Below are positions 3,001-6,000 of a DNA stretch of 16,049 nucleotides, in pieces (the first letter of the stretch is position 1; every line of letters begins with the position of its first letter). The position numbers are program-made. The stretch is from a virus. Taxonomy: Duplodnaviria; Heunggongvirae; Uroviricota; Caudoviricetes. The stretch lies in the IMG/VR virus record IMGVR_UViG_2778261567_000016, positions 1 through 16,049 of that record; one strand, given 5' to 3'.

Positions 3001-6000
3001 TTACCGGGTTCAACGCGATCGCAGCCGACAAGGCCAATGGTCGGCAGAACAATGGCTAAAGCAAAAATAATTTTTTTCATTTTTTATCCTTAGTGAAAGA
3101 AAGACCCTTGTAAATGGCATAAATGCAGGGCGGGGTCAGAAACGCCAGTGCAAAGCCAGAAATAACTGCTATCGTATCCTTCATGGATATAAGGAACGGA
3201 ACGAGTAATCCGTAAATGCATGCGATAATTGCCAGTAAAATTACTATTGTGAAATACAGTTTCATTGGTATGTGGTATCCCGATATTTTTAACTGACAGA
3301 CAGCGCAATAAAGAGAATAATGATTTCTGTTATTGTCAGTACTGTGGCAAGGATTAAAAGCAGTTTTACTCTGCTTAAGTCACGGTTGCTTTTCATATAA
3401 ACGGTTAGTAAAAAACGGAAGAATTATATTCCTCTTAATATTTAATGTGTCACTGGCCTTCTGGCATACCATGAGTATTCAGGTCGTTAATCATTTCATC
3501 CAGAAGGAGTTCAAGCCCTTCTCGCCCCATGTCTGAAACAATGAAACCTTTATCTGGGTATGTAATGAGCATTTTCTGATAAAGAAATAGTGCTCTACCC
3601 ATTCCTTCTGCCTCGCCGTATTTTTGAATTAAATTCCATTCAATATACTGCTGTAAGGCAAACCGAATGGGGCCGGGATATATCGTCATAACCCCATGCT
3701 TCCCGTTATATATTACGGCGCGATCTGTTGTTCCGTGTTCGTTTGGGATATCAATAGTGCCATTCTTGTTTTCTTCTTCGTTGATGAATGTCGTCACGTA
3801 CAACCAGCGCCACTGGGCTACCTTCATCTCAACAGGGAGTTTACCCAGTAATCCTGCATTGTCGGCTTGTGCGAGGCATTGAAGGATTTGCAAACCTTTC
3901 ACATTAGGATGATCGAATGCACCTGCATCCAGACGGCGGATTGCGTCGTGATAATCAATAGTCATACTGCCAGTTCGTATACCTGTGGCTGTTGCTTCAG
4001 CCTGGAATTCAGTGTATTGCATGATATTTACTCCTCATCTTCATCAGCTGGTGCAATAACGTCATATCCTGCCTTTTCTGCAATAAACAGGAATGTTGAA
4101 AGACTTCCTACAAGTTCATCGTCATGAACATGACGAATTAATATTACTTTCCCGTTTTTGATGGTCAGCAATACTCTGGTTTGCTCGTGTTCTGCTGTTT
4201 TCTGATGCATTATTATCTCCCGTATGCTTTACGCAGAAACAAGCAGGCAATATGCATGTAATTTTTCCCGTGCTGTGCAATAAGGCAGGCTGTTTTGTGT
4301 GATGCCTTATGTTTTATAAAGGTCATATAAAACCTCCTGTTGATTAAGGGTGTGATAATCCCCGGCGATTAAGCCGTAATATATTATCCGGAGATGACTT
4401 GTTCTATTTAACTGGTTAGTTCTTTTTCAGCAGCTGCTTCAGCATAGCAACGTGCAAATTCAAGAACTTCATCACCTGTTCTTTTTATTGCATCGTTGTC
4501 TGACATTTGTAATACAACAACTGCGCATAATAAATTATGGATATTGTTTGCAAAGGAATCCGCTGCCAGGCATAAGCCTTCATACTTATCATGGATATTG
4601 CCAGTCATTGTTGCTACTCCTTTGCTTCTGATTTTCCCGTTAACAACCACATCAAGTCACAATTAAGCGCACTGGCCAGTGGTACTATCTGAGCAGCTGG
4701 AACTTCATGGATGCCGCATTCCCAGTCGTTTATGGGGTCACTATAGGTATGAATCATGCGGGCAAGATCAGATTCGGTTAATCCCAGTTTTGTACGGGCG
4801 CTTTTGATGCGTGCGCCAATACTTTCCACATGGACTTCAGGCACATTTACGCGAATAACTGACTCGCTGTTTTTTTCACTCAGCAGAGAAAGCGGATCGC
4901 ATCCCAGGACGTTTGCCAGGGGGATAAGCATGCTGATGGTTGGTTCGTACTCTCCGCTCTCCCACTGGATGATAATTTCTTCATCGAGATCGAGCAGCCT
5001 GGCGAGTTCGGCAGTTGTTAAGCCGCAGGCTTCACGTTTGGTGCGTATGCAGGCTATCTTGTTGCCTGAGCGAATAGAATGTTGTTGTTTTGTCGATGCG
5101 ATCGCTAAAGCATATTCATGAGTAAATTCCAGCACATCAAACCCAACCTCTTTTAATCGCGTATCATCCAGGAGGTTGAAGGTGCGAACAGCACTGAGCA
5201 GGTTTGCGATGGTTAATGCAAAAGAATCGAGGTCTAAATCATCACATAAGACCTTGTTGTAAGTATTGAGGCTACATGTTTTTGGTGTTGTTTGTAAGGC
5301 TTCCATATCATCACCATGCAATTCTAAGTTGAAGTTAATCAATATATAATTGATGGTGAGATATTATGTATCAGGAAAACGTGTGTCAATCAAAAATTGA
5401 TAAACTTGATTTTTTTGTAATGTGTGACCAATAATTTAATTTAAAATCAATAACTAACCAAATCTGTTGATATTGAATGGTACCGATGAGATGACTTTTG
5501 ACTGGATATATAGCAGCGCCATTCCCTCTTTTTCGATGCTCCATGGCTGATAGTTGGGATTGTCTGATAAGACCATGATCTTGCTTCCAATTTTTTGAAG
5601 TCGTTTGATGTAACATTCGCCATCAAAGCAAAATGCATAAATGCCATCACCGTCAAAATAAGTTACTGTTTTATCTAAAAACAGCAAGTCCCCTGGGGAG
5701 ATTGTTGGGGCCATGCTGTCCCCTCTGGCGTTACCAATTTCTATGTTCTTGAATGCTCTGTTACCGACCAGGCGGCGGGCATATTCAGGATCAAGTTCTA
5801 TTGAGCGTACAACATCAATTAGATCTCCCCGAACATGAGTTCCGTCGCCGCAGCTGGATTCAACATCCAGTACATTGAACACAACGCTGTCTTCTCTTGT
5901 ATGGTGTTTTTCAGCTGAAGAAAGTGTTGATGAGGTGTCTTCACCCAAAAACCAGGATTGTGGATAACCACTAATTACTGATAGTTGTGCAAGTTTATCG

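Follow-up and report, generated by a model that had tools for sequence, protein, structure and literature searches.

The locus considered here raises the question of whether a very short open reading frame (ORF) close to the immunity region of a lambdoid prophage is a gene at all and, if it is, whether its product matters or only the act of translating it. The ORF encodes 37 amino acids (aa) and lies on a 16,049-nucleotide (nt) stretch of a tailed phage (Caudoviricetes; IMG/VR record IMGVR_UViG_2778261567_000016, positions 1 to 16,049), which was analysed at its full length and is called the window below. An initial annotation, made from the sequence alone, had described it as an unannotated basic ORF leading a three-gene, translationally coupled operon. 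The explanation that we consider highly probable overall is that this small ORF is a genuine gene with a functional peptide product, that it forms an internal cistron of the early-left operon, and that it carries the anatomy of translational coupling to the gene that follows. The ORF and its ribosome-binding site are located as follows:

4213-4326, minus strand: gene of the 37-aa small protein, including the TAA stop; product MTFIKHKASHKTACLIAQHGKNYMHIACLFLRKAYGR
4333-4338, minus strand: AGGAGG Shine-Dalgarno (SD) sequence of the small ORF, separated from the ATG by a 6-nt spacer

The ORF was found as it had been described, with its ATG at 4326-4324 and its TAA at 4215-4213; the strand had been missing from the earlier description. 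The SD sequence (4338-4333) is indeed well spaced, and it is the sole AGGAGG on the minus strand across the 16-kb window. The basic character of the peptide was equally borne out, as it has a net charge of +7, no Asp or Glu and only 2 Arg; ASHKTACLIAQHGK is an example of a tryptic fragment derived from it. An ORF list made with the default 60-aa limit does not include the small ORF, and it is likewise absent from all RefSeq/PGAP records examined, whereas GenBank and DFAST-type records in part call it a "hypothetical protein" (BCI49708.1 and BAI36310.1, the latter being ECO111_2446). The term "unannotated" is hence correct for RefSeq/PGAP and for the family libraries, but not for GenBank. The records of Fels-1 and ENT39118 are without any annotation of the small ORF.

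A degenerate pattern built from the conserved ends of the ORF matched 84 stretches in IMG/VR, or 86 together with two hits in genome collections, and all 86 matches are intact ORFs without internal stops that encode 29 peptide variants. Start, frame and stop were kept in 49 distinct contexts, and the copies of phiP27 (75% DNA identity), VL40, ASU11, UTAK-4 and SCU-387 aligned from start to stop with zero indels. The ratio of nonsynonymous to synonymous substitution rates (dN/dS; Nei-Gojobori), which the initial annotation had proposed as a check, amounted to 0.04-0.17 in the frame of the small ORF versus 0.6 to >6 in the two shifted frames, indicating purifying selection. Between the window and phiP27, the proportion of synonymous differences (pS) was 0.68 and that of nonsynonymous differences (pN) 0.11 (Fisher p = 1.7e-7 for the synonymous excess), and in general synonymous divergence was near saturation (pS about 0.7) compared with a pN of about 0.12. 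Among the 20 distinct 114-nt alleles, the sites that varied at codon positions 1, 2 and 3 numbered 19, 10 and 34 of 37, respectively, and the 35- and 38-aa length classes showed the same codon-position pattern as the 37-aa class. The C-terminal K-A-Y-G is held by means of synonymous codons (AAA/AAG, GCA/GCT/GCC, TAC/TAT and GGG/GGT/GGA). Because these codons change synonymously, the conservation of KAYG is not merely that of an SD sequence embedded in them.

Purifying selection thus spans the whole length of the small ORF. Given this selection, the ORF is almost certainly translated, which the initial annotation had deemed probable, and since it is the amino-acid sequence that is selected from end to end, the peptide itself would be functional. 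Conservation and synteny in related prophages, a further check suggested at the outset, point the same way, with the frame kept in 86 of 86 matches and a constant gene order (see below). Judged on this comparative evidence, the small ORF is a real protein-coding gene.

The same data bear on the view that there is no gene, and that the frame is a by-product of a conserved RNA structure or of a short homology "linker" used in recombination. This view can draw on the failure of PGAP to call the ORF in any record, on a real conserved hairpin just upstream of it, and on a 169-bp block, described further below, which contains the ORF and lies exactly at mosaic break points. However, a three-base periodicity of substitutions together with the pS and pN values given above is impossible for an RNA or DNA element, an 8-bp stem within the ORF is disrupted without compensation in phiP27 and VL40, and start, frame and stop are kept in every one of the 86 copies; a recombination joint and a gene are, moreover, compatible with one another. 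The predicted mRNA fold of leader and ORF (4400-4170) was unremarkable (z = -1.7), and an RNA-structure explanation of the ORF is disfavoured by this value and by the lack of conservation of the internal stem. We consider it extremely unlikely that the small ORF is not a gene.

The peptide belongs to a family of 35-38 aa with the consensus MTFIKDkaAYKTAcLfa.yG..y.hIa.LfLRKAYGR, in which M1, F3, L15, G20, I26, K33, A34, Y35 and G36 are invariant and every member is net basic (+3 to +7). Searches with tblastn returned matches in Stx1a-, Stx2a- and Stx2d-converting phages, PhiR49_2, phiP27 and ASU11 and, at 50-64% identity, in Salmonella Fels-1, Cronobacter ENT39118, Aeromonas AsXd-1, Klebsiella ST16-OXA48phi5.3 and several Escherichia phages. 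More than 1000 contigs carry the exact 37-aa protein, and roughly 1400 contig blocks carry the ORF. Only 6 related clusters came out of 1.84 billion representative proteins that were searched exhaustively with HMMER. Enterobacterial-type copies of the ORF together with its neighbours were also seen on a 756-bp scaffold of an actinobacterial assembly (Kocuria sabuli, NZ_JAVHZE010000071.1) and in Elizabethkingia phage EKP1; contamination or a doubtful host assignment is the likely reason in both cases. In another IMG/VR record, IMGVR_UViG_2778261349_000009 (14,711 bp), the small ORF has coordinates and strand identical to those in the window (4213-4326, minus), and the two may be the same or a near-identical source sequence.

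Gene order is constant in the family: cro points one way and cI the other, and cI is followed by 1-4 variable genes, the small ORF and the next gene. The window itself is a lambdoid prophage with int, xis, DUF4222, DUF5406, SPFH, the small-ORF genes, cI (S24) and a YdaS-like cro, and it also carries Rha/Bro/Ash genes, isrK and C4 RNAs, replication genes and Q. When ORFs up to 4 kb to either side were screened for co-occurrence at 48 distinct loci, only one recurrent companion emerged, an upstream family of ~230 aa present at 47 of the 48 loci, which probably comprises repressor-type genes with a helix-turn-helix (HTH); a specific partner gene for the small ORF was not found in this screen. The small ORF lies downstream of cI, where the variable genes close to the immunity region give way to the accessory genes of the early-left region.

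If the peptide is under selection, what is the ORF's relationship to the genes that follow it? The junction in the window involves these features:

4216-4221, minus strand: GGGAGA, codons 36-37 (Gly-Arg) of the small ORF and at the same time the SD sequence of the 60-aa gene
4028-4210, minus strand: 60-aa gene (phrog_340), starting 2 nt past the stop of the small ORF
3450-4022, minus strand: 190-aa gene (phrog_1515), separated from the 60-aa gene by a 5-nt gap

The first junction reads TAC GGG AGA TAA TA ATG, so that GGGAGA stands 5 nt ahead of the ATG at 4210 and the last codons of the small ORF do carry the SD sequence of the next gene, as had been claimed. The 60-aa gene ends in GAG GAG TAA ATATC ATG, with GAGGAG 8 nt ahead of the ATG at 4022, and the proposed packing of three genes (37, 60 and 190 aa, with gaps of 2 and 5 nt) was confirmed. 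The 60-aa protein has weak similarity to the C-terminal parts of anti-repressors and is without a match in Pfam, NCBIfam, PADLOC or PDB, while the homologues of the 190-aa protein are all named "hypothetical protein" and PDB held no match to it. Across 82 evaluable loci, the next start always fell between -7 and +3 nt relative to the stop of the small ORF (53 loci have a 2-nt gap, 26 a 3-nt gap and 3 an overlap), and 79 of the 82 combined GG[GA]-rich last codons with a stop-to-start gap of 2-3 nt. The downstream partners belong to three families, one of 60-77 aa with the motif RVLLTI.NG that includes the phrog_340 gene of the window, one of about 119 aa and one of 66-78 aa, which are unrelated to each other (hhalign probability <1%). 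A fixed two-gene module with the downstream gene was rejected on account of these three unrelated families.

A junction that stays tight whichever gene follows is what conserved translational coupling predicts. Of the claim that the small ORF sets up coupling for the downstream genes, the anatomy is thus confirmed at 82 of 82 loci, and coupling itself is what this anatomy suggests: a ribosome that terminates on the small ORF would pass on to the following gene by way of the SD sequence in the last codons of the ORF. The arrangement resembles known coupled cistron pairs in its stop-to-start gap of 2-3 nt and in the downstream SD sequence (GGGAGA) inside the upstream ORF, but differs from them in that here the upstream partner is conserved and the downstream one is swapped among three unrelated families. 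In several phage records, as in phiP27 (2660-2863), ASU11 (2721-2954) and Fostie (2539-2964), the annotated start of the downstream gene falls within the small ORF or ahead of it; an ATG created by TAT-GGG is an example of such a start codon. These starts are probably mis-annotated because the small ORF was ignored.

An arrangement of this sort could also be expected of a cis-acting leader ORF, in which only the act of translation matters, for ribosome delivery or for shielding from Rho, and the peptide is functionless. The tight junction kept with three unrelated downstream families, the embedding of the next SD sequence in the last codons and the 81-nt untranslated spacer that precedes the ORF all speak for it. 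Yet an ORF that serves to deliver ribosomes should not keep its amino acids, and the in-frame dN/dS is 0.04-0.17; F3, L15, G20, I26 and KAYG are invariant through synonymous changes, and the length is held at 35-38 aa. An alternative terminator/antiterminator structure was not found either, in keeping with the z score of the fold. As to an attenuator, no terminator-like site was seen on the minus strand between 4400 and 3300, the stem within the ORF is unconserved, and the constraint covers the whole length rather than being limited to a stalling motif. We therefore judge the leader ORF to be very unlikely and continue with a functional peptide as the preferred reading.

The initial annotation had placed the small ORF at the head of its operon. 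The following features, which lie about 1 kb upstream, do not fit with this:

5389-5361, minus strand: likely pL promoter, TTGACA-17-TAATAT, from the promoter scan
5400-5419, minus strand: operator-like repeat in common with the cI-cro intergenic region, from repeats D2 and I11 and direct reading

Between cI and cro (6175-6264), the window contains the operator-like motif AATCAAGTT(A/T)AT, of which a further occurrence lies at 5400-5419; this second one and the TTGACA-17-TAATAT site next to it are situated upstream of a gene for a 242-aa dual-HTH protein. Region 5361-5419 is probably the left operator and promoter (OL/pL), and 6175-6264 probably the right operator (OR). The promoter scan detected neither a promoter- nor a terminator-like site in the 81-nt spacer ahead of the small ORF, and the minus strand from 5419-5361 down to the ORF is free of such sites save for one weak promoter-like match within a 66-aa gene. 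Since the pL-like site is upstream of the 242-aa gene and the spacer lacks a promoter, the claim that the ORF leads the operon was dropped; in the window it most likely comes third, as an internal cistron, in a pL-type early-left operon, which would be transcribed under repressor control following induction. In ENT39118, AsXd-1, Fostie and LMessi, the ATG of the small ORF and the stop of the preceding gene share bases (ATGA), so that in these four phages, too, the ORF is an internal cistron. A promoter in the conserved leader was considered and rejected, as the candidate hexamers are unconserved in both spacing and sequence. The two genes between the pL-like site and the small ORF show a likeness of their own: the 66-aa protein (phrog_4587; 4408-4608, minus) resembles residues about 39-81 of the adjacent 242-aa "CII-like" protein (4614-5342, minus), which also matches phrog_4587. 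This may reflect a partial duplication or a domain paralogue.

Upstream of the ORF, two further features have to be taken into account:

4363-4376, minus strand: mRNA hairpin of 4 bp, CGGC-uuaauc-GCCG, located in the 81-nt spacer ahead of the small ORF
4213-4381, minus strand: 169-bp mosaic block of hairpin, leader and small ORF between unrelated flanking genes

The hairpin is 100% paired in 11 of 11 distinct leaders, with compensatory double changes in three of its four pairs (UGCC/GGCA in Fels-1, CACC/GGUG in SaltyDalty and CGCC/GGCG in EKP1). Its covariation score was reached by 0 of 500 shuffles, and RNAalifold independently predicted this helix only. Because the U-G and G-U wobbles of four sequences would be mismatches on the opposite strand, the hairpin is a structure of the sense mRNA, in which a conserved GGGAUU...AACCU(G/U)AA comes after it. 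The hairpin has no U-tract, Rfam at a permissive threshold gave chance-level matches only, and no second copy exists within the window. The four phages with the ATGA overlap lack it, as does one additional lineage. Roles in mRNA stability, processing or protein binding are possibilities. Several other readings of the leader were rejected. A second helix after the hairpin (GG.UU/AACC) was only 79% paired with zero covariation; pairing of AACCUKAA with the SD sequence of the ORF was lineage-specific and inconsistent when 49 leaders were folded; termination of an antisense transcript would turn G.U into A.C on that strand and the stem is just 4 bp; and a nutL/nutR-like pair is precluded by the absence of a second copy from the window. 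The fold of the E. coli-type leader leaves the SD sequence of the small ORF free. At position 4341 (minus strand), the window has an A where most E. coli copies (RM10042, Stx2_EH2201, UTAK-4) have a C (UAAUCA versus UAAUCC), which weakens a lineage-specific GGAUUA/UAAUCC helix predicted in other leaders.

The limits of the 169-bp block are given by BLAST break points at query positions 70 and 238, corresponding to positions 4381 and 4213 of the window. UTAK-4 has the upstream gene in common with the window and a different downstream gene, SCU-387-type prophages have the downstream gene in common and a different upstream gene, and VL40 and phiP27 share essentially the 169-bp block alone. The block is found in 230 of 5426 complete E. 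coli genomes (about 4%), and Fels-1 of Salmonella LT2 carries it as well. Hairpin and ORF travel together as one mosaic unit.

This joint movement is the basis for the idea that the peptide is a small RNA-binding regulator that acts on its own leader hairpin and gates the early-left accessory genes, as an N-type antiterminator in miniature or through autoregulation of translation. That the hairpin covaries and lies in the sense mRNA, that the whole family is net basic, and that the position mimics that of nutL-N at the head of the left arm of lambda are in its favour. On the other hand, four phages have the ORF without the hairpin, as does the leader of another lineage, the rightward operon contains no second (nutR-like) copy up to Q, the peptide with its 2 Arg lacks an arginine-rich motif, and the phage already has a Q antiterminator. 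Compared with nutL-N of lambda, which likewise has a short hairpin ahead of a gene for a small basic protein, to the left of the immunity region, the small ORF differs in having neither the arginine-rich motif nor a boxA nor a nutR counterpart, in not being the first gene after pL, and in lacking the hairpin in some family members. We regard such a regulator as very unlikely. A broader version, in which hairpin and basic peptide form a portable regulatory cassette and the peptide binds its own leader RNA, the ribosome or RNA polymerase to gate the downstream accessory genes, strikes us as highly improbable too; if true, phages would possess in this cassette a new and minimal class of regulator that acts post-transcriptionally and marks the boundary of a module. 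Nor does the locus look like a type I toxin-antitoxin system: the peptide is net basic with two short predicted helices, a membrane-spanning stretch is not evident from its sequence, no plus-strand promoter-like site was found near 4200-4400, and the wobbles of the hairpin fit the sense strand only.

To return to the functional peptide, AlphaFold2 run on an 8-sequence alignment predicted two helices, residues 7-18 and 21-34, on either side of a turn at Gly20, which is invariant (mean predicted local distance difference test, pLDDT, of 87), whereas a single-sequence run gave one long helix (pLDDT 73). The family consists of net-basic peptides of 35-38 aa, predicted to form two helices and a turn and encoded by a genuine gene of lambda-like temperate phages of Enterobacterales and Aeromonas. 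A zinc-binding peptide was rejected, as the His and Cys of the window copy are unconserved in the family.

Fold and position invite a comparison with Kil of lambda (Pfam PF06301), which has been predicted to form a helix-turn-helix. According to this proposal, the small ORF would be a diverged Kil homologue that blocks host cell division (FtsZ) in early lytic growth. Both are tiny (37-47 aa for Kil and its HK620 and ES18 relatives, those of HK620 and ES18 being likewise 37 aa), non-essential in the case of Kil, and located in the early-left operon, and the small ORF has the motif TFI.D...[FY][RK].A in common with residues 16-27 of lambda Kil, besides the predicted two-helix fold. However, 12 family members were without any Pfam match, including Lambda_Kil, at E<=10, compared with 72 bits for lambda Kil itself, and hhalign gave a probability of 4.9% against lambda Kil and 5.8% against a lambda/HK620/ES18 Kil profile, over 12 columns only. 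The motif is unconserved within the Kil family (VYLGD in ES18) and stands at the junction of helix 1 and the turn in Kil, but ahead of helix 1 in the small ORF. Moreover, kil adjoins cIII and gam far from cI, whereas the small ORF lies just beyond the immunity region. Homology to lambda Kil (TFIGDEKMFREA against TFIKDKAAYKTA) was rejected on the non-significant Pfam and hhalign results, which leaves a functional analogy, and we believe a true Kil homologue to be highly improbable. CIII of lambda, a 54-aa FtsH inhibitor, is of the same kind, a small helical early-left peptide that binds a host protein; it differs in having zero sequence similarity to the small ORF in library scans and in an amphipathic core motif that the small ORF lacks.

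By analogy with Kil and CIII, the peptide would most likely act by binding a protein of the host or the phage and modulating it, a mode of action that is a guess from that analogy. Several points weigh against the explanation preferred here. The small ORF had zero family matches in Pfam, PHROGs v4, NCBIfam, PADLOC and the PDB sequences, and fold searches of the model in BFVD and PDB returned nothing significant. Ribosome-profiling, proteomics or tagging data on the peptide were not found, and literature searches by peptide strings and by topic returned no papers. The strong AGGAGG is specific to the E. coli lineage, other family members having a weaker SD sequence or the ATGA overlap. The downstream gene has a good SD sequence of its own and could initiate independently, so that coupling may be dispensable. 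Finally, the promoter scan returned fewer sites than shuffled sequence, and pL is deduced from its match to the consensus and from the repeat.

Elsewhere in the window, isrK (60 bits; 8250-8326) and a C4 antisense RNA (82 bits; 8351-8438) were detected on the plus strand at the Rfam gathering level, adjoining Rha/Ash/Bro anti-repressor-type genes. The rightward operon seems here to include a module for antirepressor control of the P1/P7 or Gifsy type.

What this locus adds is a previously unnamed family among the small accessory genes that are familiar from lambdoid early operons, and nothing in it would surprise a specialist. Its fixed position and fixed coupling anatomy next to interchangeable genes make the small ORF a clean marker of a recombination joint in phage mosaicism. 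Shiga-toxin-converting prophages and their relatives also gain a small, widespread early gene that RefSeq and the family libraries do not contain. Kil and CIII are examples of how small peptides from the early-left region of lambdoid phages have repeatedly proved to be specific inhibitors of host machinery, and by analogy the product of the small ORF may be seen as a reasonable candidate for a new inhibitor of this type.

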